From: Clostridia bacterium
Lineage (GTDB): Bacteria; Bacillota; Clostridia; CAKSNL01; HGM11501
NCBI GenBank assembly: GCA_045545475.1
Contig: JAZQAZ010000004.1
Location: forward strand, 1-21,433
Reading direction: 5' to 3'
DNA: 21,433 bases
The notes under the pieces are model-generated. The model searched no databases. It saw only the letters and a list, made by a program, of their open reading frames with translations, and was not told where the DNA came from. The first letter of the stretch is position 1. Every line of letters starts with the position of its first letter. Position numbers and translations under genes: made by a program. Shown here piece after piece: positions 11,124 through 19,289 of this stretch.

Positions 11124-12260
11124 ATGAAAAAACGCCTTTTATGCCTGGTCAGTGCAATCATTTTAATACTTTCTGTCAGCATCAATGCTGCGGTTACTGT
11201 GGACTATAACTATTCCGAAACGGTAACTCCGGGTGTTGTCCGCTACGTTTCGCAGATTCGCTCCAGCGATGTTTACTATCAAAACTACTGGGGAAGATTT
11301 TCGCCCTGGGCACACAATGAATGCGGAACAGCAGCTGTTTCCATGGCGTTATCCGCCATCGGCATTAACAAGACACCTCTTGACCTTGGTAACTACTGGA
11401 TTTCCAAGGGGTATACATGGGGAAATCCTTTCTCCACAGTATTAAATGACGTTCCGGAAGCAACAGGCGGAGAAACCTATGACTTTTTCGCCTCATTTGA
11501 CCGCTACATAAACGGCGACGGCTCATACAGCCCCGTAATAATTTACTTTACTGCGGCCACAAACCCCAACCGCACCGGAAACCGTCACTTCGTTCTGGTT
11601 ACCGAAAAGAAGGAGGACGGCTCCTTTAACGCAGTAAACCCCTCTAATAAATCAATGCTCAATTTGAAAATCGAAAAAACCTCAGGCGGAAGTTTATATG
11701 TTACCGTTTACGGCCACAAGGGAACCACATCGGGATATATTTCGGAATATGATTTCCGTTCGGCACAGTATCACAACCCCTCTTTTGTAAAGCCTGCAGA
11801 AAAAGAAGTTCCGACGGAAGAAGCAGGCACTACCCCCGAAGAAACTGCTCCGCAATCCGAAAATCCCGAGGATGCAACAAAAGTTGCGGAAGCAGAATTA
11901 CCGGAAGAAAACGATACCGTAGTTACTCCTGAATTTTTGTTCCCCGCATCGATTTATCCTTCGGCTCCCACAGCATTGTCCTATGATTTTTGCGAAATAA
12001 GGTTCAAGGATACAGGCTGCGATACATACACCCTTAGTTTCAGACGTGCAACTGTTCCCGGAGCTGACGCTCCCTTTAATGATGAACACGCAAAGGCAAT
12101 AACCGCTACTGTGGGAGAAGGCTTAATTGCCAGAAACAATGACGGAACCATGAGTTTATTTATACCCGACGGTCTTGAACAGGGTTACCTTTACCGCTTC
12201 TTTATTTCGGATGCAAACGGAGTGTCCTGCACACTTATAACCTATGGCCTTGCCCAATAA
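11124..12260 (+). CDS. Secreted C39-like (papain-fold) cysteine peptidase with acidic linker and C-terminal domain
   Basis: Signal peptide; Q..D, ECGTAAVSMALS, HFVLV and VNPS motifs; E/P/T-rich linker. Confidence 0.7.
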   Translation: MKKRLLCLVSAIILILSVSINAAVTVDYNYSETVTPGVVRYVSQIRSSDVYYQNYWGRFSPWAHNECGTAAVSMALSAIGINKTPLDLGNYWISKGYTWGNPFSTVLNDVPEATGGETYDFFASFDRYINGDGSYSPVIIYFTAATNPNRTGNRHFVLVTEKKEDGSFNAVNPSNKSMLNLKIEKTSGGSLYVTVYGHKGTTSGYISEYDFRSAQYHNPSFVKPAEKEVPTEEAGTTPEETAPQSENPEDATKVAEAELPEENDTVVTPEFLFPASIYPSAPTALSYDFCEIRFKDTGCDTYTLSFRRATVPGADAPFNDEHAKAITATVGEGLIARNNDGTMSLFIPDGLEQGYLYRFFISDANGVSCTLITYGLAQ

Positions 12261-12268
12261 TAAAACAG

Positions 12269-12307
12269 AAAAAACCACGCAGTTCATTCTAAGCTGCGTG
12301 GTTTTTT
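12269..12307 (+). terminator. Intrinsic terminator
   Basis: AAAAAACCACGCAG...CTGCGTGGTTTTTT after the stop codon. Confidence 0.8.
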
Positions 12308-12355
12308 ATAATTGACGATTGCAGTAAAAGAAAGCTTGTGCTTCCCTTTCGTTCT

Positions 12356-12592
12356 TTATTCATTTTTGCCCGCTTCATCAACAAAAGAAGCCTTAAGCAT
12401 CTGCTTATGTCTATGTACTATATATTTTATAATACAGGCTATGCCGAAGCATATTGTTATGCCGATTATCTGATAATTTCCTATATAACTTATCAATATT
12501 CTTATGGCAAACCATTCGTTGTTTTCTCTGAATATAAGTGGAAAATACCACGGCGTTTGCAAAAGAACTAGAAAAAGCCATATAAAAAATGC
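12356..12592 (-). pseudogene. 5'-truncated paralog of immunity-like gene 14283..14738
   Basis: Encodes AFFIWLFLVLLQTPWYFPLIFRENNEWFAIRILISYIG..., nearly the same as the C-terminal half of 14283..14738; N-terminal half missing. Confidence 0.8.
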
Positions 12593-12633
12593 TTTTACAG
12601 TTATTTTATCTTCATCAGGTTGATAGAGAAGTC

Positions 12634-12668
12634 AAAAAGAATCCCCGCTGCTGCGGGGGTTCTTTTTT
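12634..12668. terminator. Terminator after the displaced nrdG 3' fragment
   Basis: AAAAAGAATCCCCGC-TGCT-GCGGGGGTTCTTTTTT. Confidence 0.75.
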
Positions 12669-12673
12669 GCGTG

Positions 12674-12772
12674 TTATTCCAAAAAAAGTTTAATTTCACC
12701 TGTTTCTCTTGTCTTCTTAAGATCGATAACCCTCTGGTTTGAAGAACCCTTAAACTTGAGCATTATGCTGTA
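12674..12772 (-). pseudogene. nrdG: Duplicated 3' end of nrdG (32 codons plus stop)
   Basis: Translates YSIMLKFKGSSNQRVIDLKKTRETGEIKLFLE*, 28/32 identical to the nrdG end at 16588-16686. Confidence 0.9.
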
Positions 12773-12780
12773 TGCCAAAA

Positions 12781-12851
12781 GGGGACGTGCCTTTTTTGGC
12801 ATCTTTTACTGCTTACCACTTAAATAATAGTACCAATGCGTGTCCGTCCCC
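12781..12851. repeat. ~70-bp cassette-tail repeat, copy 1 (GGGGACG...CGTCCCC inverted ends)
   Basis: 12781-12850 matches 14195-14264 at 67/70 positions. Confidence 0.9.
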
Positions 12852-12864
12852 AGAGGTTACTTTT

Positions 12865-13377
12865 TTAATATCCCTCTGGCTCAAAGAAAACGGTGGTAAA
12901 GATTTTTCTGAACGGAACTTCTCTTTTGGATTTTATCCGTATTACACTAACCCTTTCGTCTGCAAGTACAACATCAGGCAACACCACATCTTCATAAATG
13001 TAAAATGTAGCTTTGTTCCCTTTTGTAAGCATAACATAGCCTTCTTCTGATTCGATATACAAATTATTGACATGTCCACTTGAGCCCGCGTAGTCTTTTA
13101 TACTTGGAAATATTGTTGTTGGCTCATCTTCTACGTAATAATCAAAGCTATATCTGCCACTGTGATAATATATCCTGTATGTTCCGTCTCGGTAGAAAAC
13201 ACAGTTGAAATCATCTACGCCTTCCAAGGTTCTTTCGTAGTGCATCTCGTCCCAAAACCGATCAATAGATTCAGAGTATAAATAATCCGCGAATCTTATT
13301 CCGCAGCATAAAAGAGCAATTGCACACAGAATAGCCACAATTAATACAAAAATCTTACGCCTCTCTACGAAGTTCAT
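12865..13377 (-). CDS. Putative immunity protein of the orphan tip; membrane-anchored, extracytoplasmic
   Basis: Starts 9 nt after the tip stop; N-terminal hydrophobic anchor IFVLIVAILCAIALLCC; function inferred from position. Confidence 0.65.
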   Translation of the reverse strand: MNFVERRKIFVLIVAILCAIALLCCGIRFADYLYSESIDRFWDEMHYERTLEGVDDFNCVFYRDGTYRIYYHSGRYSFDYYVEDEPTTIFPSIKDYAGSSGHVNNLYIESEEGYVMLTKGNKATFYIYEDVVLPDVVLADERVSVIRIKSKREVPFRKIFTTVFFEPEGY

Positions 13378-13386
13378 AGCATCACC

Positions 13387-14202
13387 CTACCTTATTGTGT
13401 TAAAATATACTCTCACCATATACGGATTTATTGCTCCGGTGCTTTGAGATATCTTAGCCACGTCATTCGCAACCGTTCCCGTTCTTATATCAAATGACAA
13501 TTTGCCATTTTCAAATTTAACTGTCATCCACTCTGTGAAATCATAAGTATCCTCAAGCATTGCAGTTATAATCCACTTTCCGTCTTTGTTTTTATAACCT
13601 TTTACGTGAATTGTAGCCCTGTGGATGGAATAATATAAATCGTCTGTTTCAAAAGCAATGTCTTCCAAATCTGTATCAATGGTCTTTCCGTCAGATTCTT
13701 CAATAGCTTTATCAAGAGCATCCAGATACACAGGATCATTTTTTATCAGCTCCGCTATGTCGGACTCATTCCCCAGCGTCATAGACGTCGGATTGTCCTG
13801 CAAAGAATGTTCAAGCATATATGCGGAAACATAATACTTGTTTTTTCTCAGATAATTATCTGCTCCAAGTTCCCAAACATTTCGCTGTAACTCTTTTTGC
13901 GCTTCTTCAATTGTTTTACCCGCTTCTTTTGCAAAACGTATTGCCGCTTCCTTTGGGTTTCTAATGTAATCCCAAAGCCAGTTTTTTTCTTCCGCATTGC
14001 TTTCGTCACTTTTCTGCTTTTCCGAATTTGACATAAGCGTAAGCTCAGGTTCTTCTGTAGCGAAAAGGTTATCTTCCGGCAGGTATTCGCTTTCAGGAAT
14101 ATCTGTCCTGCGGTTACTGCCTGAAAAATCCGATTCGTCTTCGGAAAAAGCATAATCGTTAAATGCTATACCCGTCGGTTTGTATGTACGAAACGGTGAC
14201 GT
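13387..14202 (-). CDS. Orphan C-terminal toxin-tip module (conserved linker plus alternative domain)
   Basis: Frame is open from 14202 (TSPFRTYKPTGIAF...ELTLMSNS), homologous to the linker of 14757..16259, then diverges; upstream in-frame TAA at 14227-14229; the ATG at 14034 is internal to the linker. Confidence 0.75.
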   Translation of the reverse strand, partial: TSPFRTYKPTGIAFNDYAFSEDESDFSGSNRRTDIPESEYLPEDNLFATEEPELTLMSNSEKQKSDESNAEEKNWLWDYIRNPKEAAIRFAKEAGKTIEEAQKELQRNVWELGADNYLRKNKYYVSAYMLEHSLQDNPTSMTLGNESDIAELIKNDPVYLDALDKAIEESDGKTIDTDLEDIAFETDDLYYSIHRATIHVKGYKNKDGKWIITAMLEDTYDFTEWMTVKFENGKLSFDIRTGTVANDVAKISQSTGAINPYMVRVYFNTIR

Positions 14203-14264
14203 GCCTTTTTTGGCATCTTTTACTGCTTACTACTTAAATAATAGTGCCAATGCGTGTCCGTCCC
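14195..14264. repeat. ~70-bp cassette-tail repeat, copy 2
   Basis: Near-identical to 12781-12850; lies between an immunity stop codon and the next linker. Confidence 0.9.
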
Positions 14265-14282
14265 AAAACGGCGTATTTCCCA

Positions 14283-14738
14283 TCAACAATCAAAATTCGT
14301 CGCCGTGCCATCTTCTTCCGACACCGGAGCTTTTTCAATTTCCTTTTTCGCCTTTCTACGATAAACAAGATATTTTACAAGACAGGCTATGGCAAAGAAA
14401 ACGGTTATTCCGATTATCTGATAATGCCCTATATAGCTTATCAATATTCTTATGGCAAGCCATTCGTTGTTTTCTCTGAATATAAGGGGAAAATACCACG
14501 GCGTTTGCAAAAGAACAAGAAAAAGCCATATAAAAAAGGCATTTTTCTTTCGTGTAAGGCGGTAATTAATTATCGCAAGGTAAATCGGATTAAGCAAAAA
14601 AAGCACTCCAACGACTCTGGTTGCTATTGTTGTAGTGTCAATAAAGCAAACAAGTAAAACAGTTGGCAAAGAACATACTAAAATCCAAGCAAAAACTTTC
14701 AGCAATACTTTCCCTGTTCCACACAGATATTTCCTCAT
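14283..14738 (-). CDS. Putative immunity protein with about four TM helices
   Basis: AAGGAGG SD directly after the toxin stop; hydrophobic segments; a paralog relic lies at 12356-12592. Confidence 0.7.
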   Translation of the reverse strand: MRKYLCGTGKVLLKVFAWILVCSLPTVLLVCFIDTTTIATRVVGVLFLLNPIYLAIINYRLTRKKNAFFIWLFLVLLQTPWYFPLIFRENNEWLAIRILISYIGHYQIIGITVFFAIACLVKYLVYRRKAKKEIEKAPVSEEDGTATNFDC

Positions 14739-14756
14739 AATTCAGCTCCTCCTTAT

Positions 14757-16259
14757 TTACTCTTCTGATGCTTTTTCAAAACTAATGTTTGGGAATAGCT
14801 TTTTGTCAATCCCAATTCCGCCCATTCCCAAAATTGACAATGCAATATGGTCGCAGTTTCTGTATGCCAGGTCGTAGCTGAAGCCTAATCCGGTAATTGC
14901 TACAGCCTGCTCAAACATCGCCTTACCCTGCTCCGGAGTAATTTCATATTCCAGCACTCTGTCATAGCTTTCCGTTCTCTTTTTTCCCGATGTTGATGCA
15001 GATAAAACAGTATTTCCGTTAAGAAAATTTTCAAGTCCCTGTCCACTTAAAACACTGATTCGCATTTCCGAAGGAGAATAAAACACTCCGTCAGGAAAAT
15101 TCTGATTTTGCGGATAAAAACTGAATAATATTCCCTGTCCACCTGAATTAACCATTAAAATTCCCGAATGTCCTGCCGTCATCGCCCCATCTTCATCGTT
15201 GAGGTAATATACGCTCGTTATTGCAGAATCGTCAAAACTATCCACATTATTAATTGTTGTTTTTATTACCTGTTGTGAATAATAGTCATCATTTGTCGTT
15301 GCTGTTTCCAACGCATTATTAAGCTCCTCGGTCAAAACGCTTTTCGCAGGAGTTTTTTCAAAATCATAATATACAGAATAATCCGTATTTACAATATCTT
15401 GGCTATCTGCATCCCAAAAAGCATTCCACCCTTTACTTGCCATACTACCATTTATTATATTTTTATCAGCTTCTGTTATTGTAATCTTTTCCGTCTCTTC
15501 CGCTTCGCTCTCGTCACTTTCCTGTTTTCCCGAATTTGACATAAGCGTAAGCTCAGGTTCCTCTGTCGCGAAAAGTTTATCTGTCCTGCGGTTACTGCCT
15601 GAAAATTCCGATTCGTCTTCGGAAAAAGCATAATCGTCAAATGCTATACCCGTCGATTTGTATGTGCTAAACGGTGACGTACTAATACCGGGGGTGTCGT
15701 CTCTTGATAAGCTAAGCACTCTGCTTGTGTTTCCGCCGTTTCCCCACCGTCTTCTGACCTTGTCGTGAAAGCTTTCGTCTTCCTCTTTTTCAGTGCCGTT
15801 AAAAGGATTACCCATTTTATTCCACTTATCAACTACTTTTGTAAATTGGTCTTCGCTTCTTTCGGATTTCGGTGTATATGTATCCCCCTTTGGTCCTTCG
15901 GGAGTTGTCGGAAGCACTATGCCTTCGTCTGTTTTTTCTGTTCCTCCGAAAGGGGCTTCTTCCTTCTTTTTCTTATCCTTGTACATGGAGTTCCAGGTTT
16001 CATCGCCAACTATGCCGTCTACCGTGAGACCTTTTGCTCTCTGATAACCCATAACCGCATTTGCCGTGTTTGCTCCCACTACTCCGTCTACCGCAAGCTC
16101 TTCGCCCTTTCCATCCTTAAAGCCTTCCTTATTCAAAAACGTCTGTACACCTTTTACTGCGTTTGAATTCATGCTGTCAGGAAAAAGTTCTTCGCCCGGT
16201 TTCTTAAGATTCTTAAATCCTTCACTGTCAAGTTTTTCATGATCAATAAAATTCTTCAA
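14757..16259 (-). CDS. Putative polymorphic toxin: PG_binding_1-type domain, acidic linker, permuted papain-like C-terminal domain
   Basis: VQTFLN..G...VDGVVGANT..AV..YQ...GLTVDGIVGDETW is a peptidoglycan-binding domain; C-terminal GHSGIL...YDLAYRNCDH; likely TTG start at 16259 after AAGGAG. Confidence 0.75.
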   Translation of the reverse strand: MKNFIDHEKLDSEGFKNLKKPGEELFPDSMNSNAVKGVQTFLNKEGFKDGKGEELAVDGVVGANTANAVMGYQRAKGLTVDGIVGDETWNSMYKDKKKKEEAPFGGTEKTDEGIVLPTTPEGPKGDTYTPKSERSEDQFTKVVDKWNKMGNPFNGTEKEEDESFHDKVRRRWGNGGNTSRVLSLSRDDTPGISTSPFSTYKSTGIAFDDYAFSEDESEFSGSNRRTDKLFATEEPELTLMSNSGKQESDESEAEETEKITITEADKNIINGSMASKGWNAFWDADSQDIVNTDYSVYYDFEKTPAKSVLTEELNNALETATTNDDYYSQQVIKTTINNVDSFDDSAITSVYYLNDEDGAMTAGHSGILMVNSGGQGILFSFYPQNQNFPDGVFYSPSEMRISVLSGQGLENFLNGNTVLSASTSGKKRTESYDRVLEYEITPEQGKAMFEQAVAITGLGFSYDLAYRNCDHIALSILGMGGIGIDKKLFPNISFEKASEE

Positions 16260-16368
16260 TAATTTCTCTCCTTTAATCTTATCATATCTTTTTTCTTTTA
16301 GCAACTTATTTTTCCGGTGCAAACGTTTCGAACCATCTGCACCCCCACAGGTTAACTCTGCAGGTTAT

Positions 16369-16397
16369 ATTATAACACAAAACGGTCTTTTTGTCAA
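16369..16397 (-). promoter_or_regulatory. Consensus sigma-A promoter upstream of the toxin gene
   Basis: TTGACA-17 nt-TATAAT with TG extension. Confidence 0.75.
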
Positions 16398-16549
16398 GAC
16401 ATTTTTACTCATAGGTTAATTTCAGTCCCAAGAGGAGCCTTGGTCGTACCGATGGTGTGCAGCGTCTCCTTCGGTGAAAGTGCTCACTGCCCCACAGCAA
16501 AATTGGTACACAAAAAAGCATTGGACTTTATTAAGCATCCCCAAAAGCA

Positions 16550-16581
16550 AAACCACACAATTCGTATGAATTGTGTGGTTT
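16550..16581 (-). terminator. nrdDG terminator
   Basis: AAACCACACAATTC-N4-GAATTGTGTGGTTT hairpin just after the nrdG stop. Confidence 0.8.
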
Positions 16582-16587
16582 CATTTT

Positions 16588-17106
16588 TTATTGGAGGAAA
16601 AGGACTATTTCGCCCGTTTCTCTTGTTTTGTTAAGGTCAATTACCCTTTGATTTGATGACCCTCTGAACTTAAGCATTATGCTGTAGAGTTCCTCTTTAA
16701 ATTCTCCGTCAACCAGTATATCTATAAGAGACAAAAGCTCGTCGGTATCCTGTGTGTGCACCTTGCCGCCGGGAAGCAAATCCTCGTAAAGGTAGCCTGT
16801 GTAACACCAGATATTTTTGTCCGGATAATGCTCTTTCACCCTTTTTACAAAAGGCAAAAGTCCCTTCTGATTGACCTTTTCCATAGGCTCTCCTCCAAGG
16901 AGAGAAAGACCGTCGATATAGGAAGGCTCCATCATTTTTATGATGGAATCTTCTGTTTCCTCTGTAAATGGCTGACCCGATGCAAAATCCCATGTTTCTT
17001 TATTGAAACAGTTTTTACAGTGGTGGCTGCAGCCTGAAACGAAAAGAGAAACCCGAACTCCGAATCCGTTTGCTATGTCGCAGTTTTTAATTGCAGAATA
17101 ATTCAT
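16588..17106 (-). CDS. nrdG: Anaerobic ribonucleotide reductase activating enzyme (radical SAM)
   Basis: MNYSAIK..DIANGFGVRVSLFVSGCSHHCKNCFN (CxxxCxxC), GGEP, RGSSNQR; TAATG overlap with nrdD. Confidence 0.95.
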   Translation of the reverse strand: MNYSAIKNCDIANGFGVRVSLFVSGCSHHCKNCFNKETWDFASGQPFTEETEDSIIKMMEPSYIDGLSLLGGEPMEKVNQKGLLPFVKRVKEHYPDKNIWCYTGYLYEDLLPGGKVHTQDTDELLSLIDILVDGEFKEELYSIMLKFRGSSNQRVIDLNKTRETGEIVLFLQ

Positions 17107-19289
17107 TATAAGTGCAATACCCTTTCCTTGATTTCCTGAGTTCTGCCCTGATTCCAATACTGTGAGCCTATATAACCGCAGGTTCTTCTTGCGACATTCA
17201 TCTTTGCCTGGTCACGGTTTTTGCAGTTGGGGCATTCCCAGATAAGCTTTCCGTCGTCTTCCTTGATAAGGATTTCACCGTCATATCCGCAAACCTGACA
17301 GTAGTCGGACTTTGTATTAAGCTCGGCATACATAATGTTGTCATAGATAAACTTCATTACGTTAAGTACCGCGGGAATGTTATCCTGCATATTGGGAACT
17401 TCAACGTAGCTTATTGCTCCGCCGGGAGAAAGTGCCTGGAATTTTGCTTCAAGAGCAAGCTTTGAGAAAGCGTCAATATCTTCGGTTACGTGAACGTGGT
17501 AAGAATTTGTGATATAGTTTTTATCTGTTACGCCGCTGATTTTACCGAATCTCTTCTGAAGGCACTTAGCAAACTTGTATGTGGTGGACTCCAGTGGTGT
17601 TCCGTAAAGTGAATAGTCAATATTTTCTTCAGCCTTCCACTTGCGGCAAGCGGCATTTAATGCTTCAAGCACCTTGATACCGAATTCCTCACCCTCTTTT
17701 TCGGTGAGCTTTTTGCCGGTAATGGCGTATACACACTCCCAAAGACCTGCAAAGCCTAAAGAAATTGTGGAATATCCGCCGTGGAGAAGCTCGGTTATTG
17801 CTGTACCCTTGGGAAGACGTGCGATTGCACCGTACTGCCAGAGGATGGGGGCTGCATCAGAAAGTGTTCCTTCAAGTCTTTCGTGACGGCACTGAAGTGC
17901 TCTGTGGCAAAGCTCAAGTCTTTCTTCAAGCACTTCCCAGAACTTCTTTTCGTCCTTACTTTCAGCTCTTGCTGTGCATGCAACGTCAACCAGGTTAATG
18001 GTTACAACGCCCTGATTGAAACGTCCGTAATACTTGGGGTTACCGTCTTTGTCAACATAAGGTGTTAAGAAGCTTCTGCAACCCATGCAGGTGTAGCAGT
18101 GGCCTTCGCCATTTTTATCCTTTTTGAGTTCAAGCATAATTTTTTCGGAGATATAGTCGGGAACCATTCTCTTTGCGGTACATTTAGCAGCAAGCTCGGT
18201 TAAGTACCAGTAGGGAGAATCTTCCTTGATGTTATCTTCTTCAAGAACGTAGATAAGCTTGGGGAATGCAGGTGTTACATACACACCGGCTTCGTTCTTT
18301 ACGCCCTCGCATCTCTGACGGAGAACCTCTTCGATAATTAAAGCAAGGTCACGTTTCAAGCCGGGATCCTTTGCCTCGTTAAGGTACATAAACACTGTAA
18401 CGAAAGGTGCCTGACCGTTGGTGGTTAAAAGTGTAACAACCTGATACTGAATAGTCTGAACACCTCTCTTGATTTCGTCAAGCAGGCGTGTTTCAACAAT
18501 CTTTGTAAGCTTTTCTTCCGTAACGTCAATTTCAGCTTCGGCAAATTCAGATTCCACCTGACGGCGGATTTTCTCTCTTGAAATCTGCACGAAGGGTGCA
18601 AGATGCGTAAGGCTTATGCTCTGACCGCCGTACTGGTTGCTGGCAACCTGTGCGATAATCTGAGTTGCAATGTTGCAGGCGGTGGAAAAGCTGTGAGGCT
18701 TTTCGATCATGGTTCCGGAAATAACGGTACCGTTCTGAAGCATATCCTCCAAGTTTACAAGGTCGCAATTGTGCATATGCTGTGCGAAATAGTCAGCATC
18801 GTGGAAGTGGATGATACCTGCTTCGTGTGCATCTACAATGTCCTGGGGTAAAAGGATTCTTTTTGTGATATCCTTACTTACTTCGCCCGCCATATAGTCA
18901 CGCTGAACGCTGTTTACCGTGGGGTTTTTATTGGAGTTTTCCTGCTTAACCTCTTCGTTGTTACATTCGATAAGAGAAAGAATCTGATTGTCTGTAGTGT
19001 TTGCAACTCTGGCAAGGTTTCTTGTGAAACGGTATCTTATATATCTCTTTGCTGTTTCGGGAGCACCCTGCAAAATGATGTGGGTTTCAACAAGCTCCTG
19101 AATTTCTTCCACGCTCATCGCTCTTCCGATGTCACGGCAATAGTCCTCAATAACTAGGGAAATGTAGTCAATCTGGCGGTCAGTAAGTTCCTTCTGTCCG
19201 CTGGTTGCCGCATTTGCTCCTTCTATAGCCTTTTTGATTTTTATTCTGTCAAACTCTGCCTCGGATCCGTTACGTTTGATAATCTTCAT
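17106..19289 (-). CDS. nrdD: Class III anaerobic ribonucleoside-triphosphate reductase with ATP cone
   Basis: IIKRNG ATP cone, MGCRSFL, GRFNQGVVTINL, CxxC..CxxC zinc site, RTCGY glycyl-radical motif. Confidence 0.97.
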   Translation of the reverse strand: MKIIKRNGSEAEFDRIKIKKAIEGANAATSGQKELTDRQIDYISLVIEDYCRDIGRAMSVEEIQELVETHIILQGAPETAKRYIRYRFTRNLARVANTTDNQILSLIECNNEEVKQENSNKNPTVNSVQRDYMAGEVSKDITKRILLPQDIVDAHEAGIIHFHDADYFAQHMHNCDLVNLEDMLQNGTVISGTMIEKPHSFSTACNIATQIIAQVASNQYGGQSISLTHLAPFVQISREKIRRQVESEFAEAEIDVTEEKLTKIVETRLLDEIKRGVQTIQYQVVTLLTTNGQAPFVTVFMYLNEAKDPGLKRDLALIIEEVLRQRCEGVKNEAGVYVTPAFPKLIYVLEEDNIKEDSPYWYLTELAAKCTAKRMVPDYISEKIMLELKKDKNGEGHCYTCMGCRSFLTPYVDKDGNPKYYGRFNQGVVTINLVDVACTARAESKDEKKFWEVLEERLELCHRALQCRHERLEGTLSDAAPILWQYGAIARLPKGTAITELLHGGYSTISLGFAGLWECVYAITGKKLTEKEGEEFGIKVLEALNAACRKWKAEENIDYSLYGTPLESTTYKFAKCLQKRFGKISGVTDKNYITNSYHVHVTEDIDAFSKLALEAKFQALSPGGAISYVEVPNMQDNIPAVLNVMKFIYDNIMYAELNTKSDYCQVCGYDGEILIKEDDGKLIWECPNCKNRDQAKMNVARRTCGYIGSQYWNQGRTQEIKERVLHL

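Follow-up and report, generated by a model that had tools for sequence, protein, structure and literature searches.

The window analyzed here, a stretch of 21,433 nt from contig JAZQAZ010000004.1 of a Clostridia bacterium (GenBank assembly GCA_045545475.1; positions 1 to 21,433), contains a polymorphic toxin locus on its minus strand, in which a constant N-terminus with a peptidoglycan-binding domain (PG_binding_1) is followed by a conserved linker, a swappable C-terminal tip and one orphan module (Table 1). Two units (15680–14203 and 14202–12789) share a single layout, each consisting of a linker head, a tip, an immunity-like gene and a tail; heads and tails are conserved between the units while the two tips are mutually unrelated. 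The preliminary description of this DNA had recognized the same layout, and every coordinate that was checked proved correct; likewise, its view of the locus as a tip/immunity array with an orphan of the Rhs/CdiA/MafB kind, on a PG_binding_1 carrier without a hydrophobic N-terminal stretch, was sustained. The head repeat falls into two blocks (15578–15680 vs. 14100–14202, 95% identity over 103 nt; 15496–15582 vs. 13988–14074, 90% over 87 nt) that are separated by a 30-nt insertion in the orphan head, and the tail repeat (14191–14264 vs. 12777–12850) is 95% identical over 74 nt. When head and tail were used as queries against the whole 2.74-Mb genome, all three matches (3/3) fell on this contig (C4), and only at this array.

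The pentanucleotide ACGTC (GACGT on the plus strand) occurs, in minus-strand reading, at 15680–15676, 14202–14198 and 12788–12784; on the plus strand of the interval 12300–16700 GACGT is found four times, and three of these occurrences are the array boundaries, as originally noted. The sequences immediately upstream of 15680 and 14202 are unrelated (ggtattagt vs. aaaaaaggc), and the homology between the units does end at these junctions. The three boundaries are nevertheless not equivalent, and the suggestion that all of them are cassette joints holds for one only: a tail is joined to a head at 14202, whereas the third boundary lies centrally in an intact 31-nt palindrome (12802–12772) and is no cassette joint, and the first (15680) is ordinary coding sequence common to the relatives. 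The array holds only one true tail-head joint, too few to demonstrate repeated use of a site. A reading of the third boundary as the remnant of a third head was considered and rejected, as the 17-mer ACGTCCCCTTTTGGCAT follows another gene in the metagenome contig L053 and completes the palindrome. The orphan frame, which begins with TSPF..., is free of stop codons for 271 codons from 14202 and opens just 8 codons upstream of the tail-head joint; since both heads begin on the first base of a codon, removal of the first unit would fuse the frames, in agreement with the initial proposal.

Table 1. Features of the toxin array and its borders, listed in minus-strand order; positions are those of the window.
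Feature	Position	Strand	Basis or remark
nrdD	17106-19289	-	Upstream of array
nrdG (anaerobic ribonucleotide reductase activase), upstream anchor	16588-17157	-	Pfam Fer4_12, 2.6e-53; nrdD-nrdG then toxin gene kept in 5 related loci
Hairpin between nrdG and toxin promoter			Minus-strand order: nrdG, hairpin, promoter
Promoter-like site of toxin gene, TTGACA-17-TATAAT with TG	16369-16397	-	12/12 consensus match, sigma-70-like
Full-length polymorphic toxin	14757-16259	-	List of open reading frames (ORFs); start of homologs MKNFIDHEKL
PG_binding_1, residues 53-113 of 521-aa ORF	15984-16166	-	Pfam PF01471, 3.5e-14
Linker head 1 (TSPF...ELTLMSNS...)	15497-15680	-	Head repeats; first 103 nt 97% identical to G003 gene
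Tip A, predicted permuted NlpC/P60 (papain-like) fold, His...Asn-Cys motifs	14757-15496	-	AlphaFold model and structure matches
imm1, 151-aa polytopic membrane protein, presumed immunity for tip A	14283-14738	-	ORF
Tail 1 (80 nt), ending in palindrome left arm ATGCCAAAAAAGGC (14216-14203)	14203-14282	-	Tail repeat
Tail-head joint ACGTC, common to palindrome centre and head start	14198-14202	-	Sequence reading
Orphan: head 2 (14202-13990) and tip B (13989-13387), no own N-terminus	13387-14202	-	Translation
imm2, 170-aa, N-terminal membrane anchor, presumed immunity for tip B	12865-13377	-	ORF, alignment, recurrence behind tip B
Tail 2, portion upstream of palindrome	12803-12864	-	Tail repeat; 96% identical to tail behind imm2 in G004:C15 and metagenome contig L053
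Intact palindrome resembling repetitive extragenic palindromic (REP) sequences, ATGCCAAAAAAGGCACGTCCCCTTTTGGCAT, centre CACGTC	12772-12802	-	Hairpin folding; variant of dispersed 26-nt repeat
Scar: final ~99 nt of second, diverged nrdG, abutting palindrome	12674-12771	-	77% identical to 16588-16686; end resembles second nrdG copy of G003
Terminator-like hairpin of nrdG scar	12643-12658	-	
Scar: 3' part of second imm1-like gene (5'-truncated)	12356-12596	-	89% over 180 nt to 14365-14544
Secreted Peptidase_C39_2-like gene, convergent, far border of variable region	11124-12260	+	Pfam PF13529, 1.7e-4, below cut-off

The toxin ORF comprises 521 codons (16322–14757), with a likely TTG start at 16259 behind AAGGAG, at the position where the homologs also begin. 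Besides PG_binding_1, no Pfam family was found in this long ORF; its N-terminus shows, by eye, no hydrophobic stretch, and no signal peptide is evident. WXG100 proteins were not found in the 95%-complete genome, a search that did not include other parts of type VII secretion systems. We infer that the PG_binding_1 domain docks the toxin on a Gram-positive wall. A search with toxin residues 1–280 yielded 181 database relatives, of which the 13 closest with adequate coverage were aligned (P0008 and P0009, with 15–26% coverage, were omitted). The N-terminus is shared by all 13 homologs, while the C-termini, the two tips of the window included, fall into at least four unrelated types: type A (the tip of the full-length window gene, P0003, P0011, P0010 and, more distantly, P0004, P0014 and P0015), type B (the tip of the orphan, P0006, P0012 and P0013), type C (P0002 and P0005) and type D (P0007 and P0016, with the lipase-like family PF11187). 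Since tip B forms the C-terminus of the full-length peptidoglycan-binding proteins P0006, P0012 and P0013, the tip of the orphan is a working tip elsewhere. The orphan has kept 213 nt of linker, 90–95% identical to head 1 barring the 30-nt insertion, and the linker, which joins the tip types to the carrier, is a homology arm for tip exchange. Such an exchange is visible in public data: among the contigs listed for four public sequencing runs (Logan contigs), a contig in three of the four runs joins tip A to the long linker type via 39 other letters. A joint from position 13479 to 15553, with additional letters between its sides, appeared in two of the four runs. The summed contig depth over imm1 and tail 1 (14165–14797) was ~2–4 times that of the flanks in the four runs, and may reflect extra imm1 copies in related strains. 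The carrier family is concentrated in the genus of the window genome (six of 11 other genomes, several of them with many copies), and distant carrier relatives bear amidase, SpoIID and lysozyme domains.

The model of tip A (AlphaFold, predicted local distance difference test [pLDDT] 84) has its best structural match in TseH (6v98; Z 11.6, root-mean-square deviation 3.3, 138 aligned residues), followed at Z 5.3–6.4 by Aichivirus 2A, 3kw0, YiiX, CLN5 and PLAAT4, all permuted NlpC/P60 relatives. The GH..G and NC motifs are kept in all seven type-A tips (7/7) and H105 is invariant; on this modeled structure, the expressed tip A is a TseH-like permuted NlpC/P60 hydrolase, with a papain-like fold in which His precedes Cys. 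Tip A is rare (four matches in a word search, none of them on another carrier family), and searches of PDB sequences with both tips returned nothing meaningful, tip B having no match at E ≤ 1. Tip B is widespread, with 413 relatives at E ≤ 1e-3 among cluster representatives; it is C-terminal in the examples examined (e.g., residues 1682–1857 of 1857), and 10 long relatives that were scanned comprised eight RHS proteins, one PG_binding_1 protein and one protein without a family. The tip B model (pLDDT 89) retrieved colicin M-type bacteriocins or BtpeA in Foldseek rows 1–15 (best PaeM, E 2.7e-3, probability 0.99), and VIA Z values of 8.1–6.0 for pectocin M1, BtpeA, PaeM, syringacin M and colicin M, which are rated borderline. 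The tip reads DTYDFTEWMTV at a position where D147 and D150 are invariant in 60 sequences; DTYD is the first half of the colicin M motif DXYDX5HR, of which degenerate forms occur in the family (PMC5821083). Tip B is probably colicin-M-like and would attack lipid II or the wall from outside. By their models, both tips look like envelope-acting enzymes, which agrees with the wall-binding N-terminus and the membrane-bound downstream partners.

The two downstream partners are presumed immunity genes that travel with their tips. The imm1 ORF begins 19 nt past the toxin stop codon and encodes about four hydrophobic segments (by eye), with no Pfam family above cut-off; imm1-like genes stand behind type-A-like tips in G004:C21 (following another membrane-protein gene) and in G007:C11. 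The imm2 gene stands behind tip B in the window genome, G004, G009 and G007, and an extra copy follows a tip-B remnant of 24–26 nt in G009 and in contig L053. Its product consists of a single anchor and an outer domain, the same layout that is described for the colicin M immunity protein Cmi (PMC5821083). A predicted complex of tip B and the imm2 ectodomain scored 0.00, a value that counts neither for nor against binding.

The nrdDG genes and the C39-like gene enclose a polymorphic-toxin hot spot. An nrdD-nrdG pair followed by at least one toxin gene was found in G003, G004:C21, G009:C3, G007:C4 and G010:C161, and the far border of the region is visible in four of these five loci: the C39-like gene takes this position in G003, G004:C21 and G009, followed in G009 by orf205 and dxs, while orf205 takes it in the G010:C161 locus (L051), where no C39-like match was found. 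The C39_2-like protein, which has a Pro/Glu-rich spacer and a C-terminal domain, borders the toxin array in the window genome (G000), G003, G004:C21 and G009. Between these borders the content varies: G003 has a type-C toxin with a lipoprotein gene, G007 has two complete toxin genes in tandem, G009 has tip B and imm2 followed by a second imm2 after only 24 nt of tip B, and in G004:C21 a type-A-like toxin is accompanied by a membrane-protein gene, by imm1-like genes that are fused, and by a truncated gene for a Y1 transposase. The tip-B gene of G004, with its promoter, lies at a different locus, and the promoter stretch is conserved upstream of the relatives' toxin genes, among them one at another locus in G004:C116. 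Between the second nrdG and the C39-like gene of G003 (L042, contig C249, 5751–6943), ORFs of 111 and 286 aa resemble by eye the orfA/orfB pair of IS3-type insertion sequences, and would add to the traffic of mobile elements at this hot spot. In the window genome, intergenic stretch and toxin N-terminus are 96% identical to their G003 counterparts (16323–16587 vs. L042 1653–1916), and the adjacent nrdG is only 88% identical, a difference suggesting that transfer between species is more recent for the toxin region than for nrdG.

Duplicated-anchor scars were found at three loci, each with its own breakpoint. In the window, nrdG is cut ~99 nt before its stop codon, in a copy of 77% identity; in G004:C21 the scar comprises nrdG from 46 nt before the stop codon, the intergenic stretch and a second promoter copy; in G003 a truncated immunity gene is joined to nrdD at about codon 561 and followed by a second nrdG, within a 1029-nt duplication of 98.7% identity. 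These varied scars fit the repeated arrival of nrdG-toxin-immunity DNA by homologous crossover upstream and an irregular join downstream, with the older modules pushed along. Related loci with a constant N-terminus and variable number or order of cassettes, which the preliminary description expected, were found in these genomes; the identical GACGT breakpoints that it also expected were not, the breakpoints being ragged.

The palindrome behind tail 2 folds into a hairpin of −8.5 kcal/mol (z −4.7; none of 200 shuffles was as good), and the end of tail 1, which keeps the left arm only, forms no hairpin (−2.9 kcal/mol, z −0.6). The window palindrome is a variant of a repeat, (TT)GACAAAAAAGGTACGTCCCCTTTTGTC, in which an A-to-C and a T-to-G change preserve the complementarity of the arms. 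As a 26-mer with up to three mismatches, the repeat was found at 16 sites in five of 12 congeneric genomes, with 1–7 copies per genome and none in the reversed control; outside the genus it was found in none of 89 genomes, in a class-level sample of 101 genomes; the order of the window genome comprises only 14 genomes. The flanks are unrelated in the 19 contexts compared, and the hairpins have z values of −2.6 to −4.7. All six copies of the window genome (6/6) adjoin toxin or immunity genes: besides the copy at the array, two lie inside a small-gene array by a Barstar gene (5e-22) and a second PG_binding_1 gene, and a more degenerate third copy also occurs there; one is near an Imm33 gene (3e-16), and two adjoin gene remnants from a second polymorphic toxin family that includes a member with a deaminase tip (5e-13). 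A 245-aa Y1_Tnp gene (IS200-like, 3.2e-16) in G010:C8 is enclosed by two copies in inverted orientation. This transposase occurs together with its repeats in G010 only, and four of the five repeat-bearing genomes show no cognate transposase; in the window genome no close homolog was found, only a weak Y1_Tnp match on another contig, and a truncated homolog lies inside the toxin locus of G004:C21. The palindrome is a clade-specific marker of toxin/immunity islands with a link to a Y1 transposase. The preliminary description was right to regard the junction as special: GACGT lies at the centre of this palindromic repeat, which is specific to the genus and associated with clusters of toxin and immunity genes. 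That description also expected a co-occurring recombinase or HUH transposase, and this was borne out by the repeat-flanked Y1 gene of one congener and not by the window, where no recombinase family was found in the 19 ORFs scanned. The five tyrosine recombinases (Phage_integrase) of the genome are all located elsewhere, on contigs C8, C10, C20 and C40.

Several copies of the repeat coincide with breaks in homology. In G004:C15 and L053 the tail halts at GGCACG and gives way to unrelated flank, and in G002:C33 a halved repeat reads GGGGA before unrelated sequence. The outer end of the palindrome, ...TTTTGGCAT, has a sharp limit in three settings: against nrdG in the window, against 26 nt of tip B in L053 and, in contigs from all four public runs (4/4), against the final 112 nt of tip A, in a joint that has only 31 letters on the palindrome side. 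Between the syntenic immunity arrays of G000:C23 and G002:C33, which also contain halved or decayed copies, the genes enclosed by repeat copies differ and some homology blocks end at copies; tandem duplications of 41 and 90 nt in G002:C33 start at repeat copies. The tail itself is scarce: with a 26-nt pattern, further copies were found only in G004:C15 among the species genomes and in one metagenome contig (L053), and BLAST with the tail in five congeners led to the same single place (G004:C15); both of these tails end in unrelated flank and not in a head. An attC-like or RNA structure of the tail was considered and rejected, as a folding comparison, which did not extend to attC core motifs, put both strands of both tails level with shuffled sequences (z −0.1 to −0.7), and only the terminal 31-nt palindrome of tail 2 folds; Rfam returned sub-threshold chance matches for the tails. 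Plus-strand ORFs at 12772–13050 (MPKGDVPFLASFTAY...) and 14180–14479 (M..NGDVPFLASFTAY...) are mere translations of tail and palindrome, and frames resembling TKGDVPFL appear wherever the repeat occurs and could mislead gene callers.

Repeat copies also accompany other islands of the genus. In G000:C23 (105757–112031; L027, L062, L064) and G002:C33 (L083), a second PG_binding_1 protein, shorter at 214 aa, is followed by a 430-aa membrane protein and a small-gene array with a Barstar gene and several anchored proteins, punctuated by repeat copies; the flanks are conserved, and the genes between them are not the same in the two species. The second polymorphic toxin family has a pre-tip region ...YDGEKEVEAYEYGLEQRK..., variable tips, among them a deaminase of the BURPS668_1122 type (5e-13), and orphans beginning at this pre-tip region; it was found at G000:C23 (123228–126000), G002:C16 (L084), G002:C49 (L085), G003:C52 and G003:C207. 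Several of its orphans adjoin repeat copies, and in G002:C16 a copy directly precedes a 5'-truncated gene copy. The transposase gene of G010:C8 (6282–12595; L088) lies between phage-head-like genes (terminase-like, portal-like and a 433-aa protein, by eye) and a small gene, a homolog of which follows a second-family toxin in G000:C23.

The joint at 14202 links the palindrome centre to the start of a head. The first 15 bases of the head (ACGTCACCGTTTAGC in the full gene) match the right half of the palindrome at 12 of 15 positions; no other place in the 1566-nt gene matches this half better than 9 of 15, and the joint is therefore read as a crossover between the palindrome and its best look-alike in the gene. 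The displacement model for orphan modules derives from work on Rhs and contact-dependent inhibition (CDI) orphans and from homology-facilitated illegitimate recombination. Applied to this locus, displacement by an upstream homologous crossover and a short-homology joint at the palindrome is held to be the probable course of events, if only just. Incoming DNA consisting of nrdG, a toxin gene with tip A, imm1 and a tail would have recombined homologously upstream, and its downstream end would have been joined at the palindrome centre to the start of the resident linker, across ACGTC and seven of the next 10 bases. This join would have severed the resident N-terminus, with the linker, tip B, imm2 and tail left behind as an orphan; a similar event at an earlier time may have joined the outer end of the palindrome to the resident nrdG, of which the last 99 nt were left. 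Each module ends in a tail of ~75 nt, closed by a REP-like palindrome that is a probable recombination hot spot in the genus. The orphan would remain available for tip switching, since homologous recombination between the heads would restore a full gene, and its imm2 may still protect the cell.

Several points weigh against this reconstruction. Its main weakness is that the array is known from one contig of a metagenome-assembled genome (MAG): none of the contigs listed for the four public runs extends across 14158–14235, and the best runs contain only 0.52 of the array contig's sampled words. Joints that skip 1478 nt, as expected from excision or from fusion of the N-terminus to the orphan, were likewise absent among these contigs; assembled contigs cannot show rare forms, and this result counts neither way. 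With a single joint in a single genome, short-homology joining cannot be separated from the action of an enzyme at a pseudo-site. In a number of independent copies the breaks fall at the centre of the palindrome, and the sharp outer end ...TTTTGGCAT in three contexts is more regular than random illegitimate joining; displacement alone gives no explanation for one tail behind two unrelated immunity genes, and a donor with tip A, imm1, tail and intact palindrome was not found. As regards function, tip B lacks the HR of the colicin M motif, and the orphan matched no Pfam family at E ≤ 0.01, the ColM model (PF14859) included. While anatomy, family, folds, repeat and scars can be read directly, we infer toxicity, protection and export, as we do the order of events and the mode of joining.

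The leading rival, which we regard as unlikely, is a dedicated cassette system with an enzyme-driven mechanism. The palindrome would then be an attC-like recombination site, cut centrally by a Y1 transposase (HUH type, similar to IS200 and to REP-associated tyrosine transposases, RAYT) or by another recombinase and joined to its look-alike in the linker; such a system would build up linker-tip-immunity-tail cassettes within the gene and reshuffle immunity cassettes at other sites. The genus restriction of the repeat (16 copies in 5/12 congeners, 0/89 genomes outside, none in the reversed control), the position of all six window-genome copies beside toxin or immunity genes, the inverted copies around the Y1_Tnp gene of G010:C8 and the truncated homolog in the G004:C21 toxin locus are consistent with it, as are the recurrent breaks at the palindrome centre, the sharp outer end in three contexts, the immunity arrays of G000:C23 and G002:C33 in which gene content and the ends of homology blocks track repeat copies, the use of the gene's best pseudo-site by the joint, and the paired changes that keep the arms of the window copy complementary. 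Against these observations stand the failure to find a close transposase homolog in the 95%-complete window genome, which has only the weak Y1_Tnp match elsewhere, the co-occurrence of transposase and repeats in G010 alone, the one tail-head joint in all data searched, scars without any repeat in G003 and G004:C21, and a copy number (1–7 per genome) that is low for a REP family. Known Y1 transposases, moreover, cut beside hairpins and not in the loop. A narrower version, in which single-strand gene capture of the HUH/Y1 type takes the place of an integron integrase, uses the palindrome, mobilized or cut by an IS200/RAYT-like Y1 transposase, as cassette end, stacks tips and immunity genes at a look-alike half-site in the linker and shuffles orphan immunity genes in separate arrays, appears rather improbable. 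The integron-like, site-specific stacking at a fixed site that the preliminary description had proposed found no support, given that there is no integrase, no attC-like fold and a single joint; ragged breakpoints, which it had named beforehand as evidence to the contrary, were found at other loci (G004:C21, G003).

It is improbable that a single head-tip-immunity-tail unit was simply duplicated in tandem by unequal illegitimate crossing-over and that homologous recombination in head and tail then exchanged the tip and immunity gene of one copy, a course that would dispense with incoming displacement. Such a course would yield exactly one new end-to-start joint, as observed, and head and tail would supply the two homology arms; the recent 1029-nt duplication (98.7%) at the same locus in G003, and the 41- and 90-nt tandem duplications that start at repeat copies in G002:C33, are precedents. 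However, it requires two steps and a donor in which the tail already stood behind tip A and imm1, and it leaves the nrdG scar behind tail 2 unexplained. From the intergenic stretch through the N-terminus to the first 103 nt of head 1, the upstream part of the locus is 96–97% like G003, whereas the orphan unit is ~88–96% like the G004 gene that lies elsewhere; this difference fits two origins better than one duplicated unit.

It is very improbable that the locus has no toxin function and combines wall hydrolase or autolysin paralogs with peptidoglycan-binding domains and unrelated membrane proteins. PG_binding_1 is common on lysins and wall hydrolases, the distant carrier relatives with amidase, SpoIID and lysozyme domains and the wall-hydrolase type of the tip A fold would suit such enzymes, and no secretion signal or known toxin export system was found, nor WXG100 in the genome; yet tip B occurs on RHS proteins (8/10 scanned) and resembles colicin M-type bacteriocins, another tip type belongs to the lipase-like family PF11187, tips are swapped on one carrier, each with its own small membrane protein, and imm2 copies persist without a toxin. 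Least credible of all is an assembly artefact in which alleles of co-existing strains were strung together in the MAG contig: the single contig, the unbridged interval and the incomplete word content given above would allow it, but tail and gene have only the five bases ACGTC in common at the joint, too few for a misjoin by a k-mer assembler and far under its word length, head-2-specific bases stand on one side of the joint and tail bases on the other, the 30-nt insertion of the orphan head is missing from head 1, and the downstream scars (nrdG remnant, imm1 remnant) run on into conserved flank.

Polymorphic toxins, with their reserve of spare tips, shape how bacteria compete in dense communities, the gut among them, and the origin of orphan modules has mostly been inferred from Proteobacteria. 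The present locus offers an exact breakpoint that is legible base by base, and it ties toxin/immunity islands to a clade-specific palindromic repeat and a Y1 transposase. Should the repeat be an active site of recombination, cassette capture could be tested with a 30-nt substrate and a single enzyme; should it be no more than a fragile hairpin, the locus is still a clear case of palindromes steering the landing of new toxin modules. The carrier, a small peptidoglycan-binding protein of uncultured gut Clostridia with tips that look envelope-acting, belongs to a class of which no earlier description was found: the literature consulted on polymorphic toxins with a peptidoglycan-binding domain, with supplementary domain-architecture tables (e.g., PMC3482391) outside its scope, held no account of this carrier, and the available portion of that source mentions such domains only as accessory adhesion domains. 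Similarly, the literature consulted on RAYT and REP elements and polymorphic toxins, supplementary tables again being outside its scope, described no link to toxin/immunity loci.

The architecture of the locus resembles the Rhs, CdiA and MafB systems in its constant N-terminus, conserved junction region, variable toxin C-terminus and cognate immunity gene, and in a downstream orphan that retains a piece of the conserved region and permits homologous switching; tip B itself occurs on RHS proteins. In Rhs/CdiA-type systems the junction motifs are PxxxxDPxGL and VENN, and orphans of the Rhs/CdiA/MafB systems are explained by the displacement model. Here, in contrast, the junction is TSPF...ELTLMSNS, the orphan boundary lies inside a repeated palindrome, and the carrier is a short PG_binding_1 protein without RHS, filamentous haemagglutinin or LXG regions, evident signal peptide or associated secretion genes; the general scheme of polymorphic toxins, Rhs and CdiA included, has been set out by Zhang et al. 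(2012; PMC3482391). The relationship of tip A to TseH, a type VI secretion system effector of Vibrio cholerae, extends to the conserved His followed by Asn-Cys in the structural alignment (PDB 6v98; Z 11.6, 138 residues), at a sequence identity of 15%; unlike TseH, tip A is fused to a peptidoglycan-binding carrier in a setting with no type VI secretion system. The tip B model resembles the catalytic domain of colicin M and keeps DxYD, and its immunity partner is predicted to be a membrane-anchored extracytoplasmic protein like Cmi, with a target that can be reached outside the membrane (Ghequire et al., 2018; PMC5821083). Tip B differs in having no match to Pfam ColM and no HR, in its Gram-positive-type clostridial host, and in its peptidoglycan-binding domain, where ColM proteins are described with a TonB box and receptor-binding domains (PMC5821083).

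As in an integron, an imperfect palindrome stands behind each tip and immunity cassette, and the joint falls inside the palindrome, with the next unit providing the other half. Integron attC sites are far longer than this palindrome, and the locus has no IntI and no platform of attI, integrase and promoter; the insertion lies inside coding sequence and there are two units only. REP families commonly comprise tens to hundreds of copies per genome, their biochemistry is known from E. coli, and REP sequences are known as join-points of duplications. The present repeat shares with the REP/RAYT system (Bertels et al., 2017; PMC5581495) the short extragenic palindrome with unrelated flanks, dispersed in a clade, and, in G010, the inverted copies on either side of one Y1_Tnp gene, whereas its 1–7 copies per genome are sited in toxin/immunity islands in the genomes examined. 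The S8-PTS and ABP systems, diffusible polymorphic toxins of Gram-positive bacteria (PMC9424270, PMC13460014), also combine an N-terminal binding module, a variable tip, an immunity gene and a neighboring peptidase gene; those proteins are described with signal peptides, a BetaH domain and an S8 protease, whereas the locus studied here has PG_binding_1 without a signal peptide, and its neighbor is C39_2-like, convergent and without a match found in one related locus. Finally, the rAID-1 clusters of Bacteroidales, called integron-like by their authors (Ross et al., bioRxiv 10.1101/471110), are each headed by a XerD-family tyrosine recombinase, whereas none heads the clostridial arrays, in which the punctuating element is a palindrome of 26–31 nt and the sole associated enzyme is the Y1 (HUH) transposase of one congener; in both, repetitive intergenic sequences punctuate arrays of toxin remnants and orphan immunity genes, with which a recombinase is associated.

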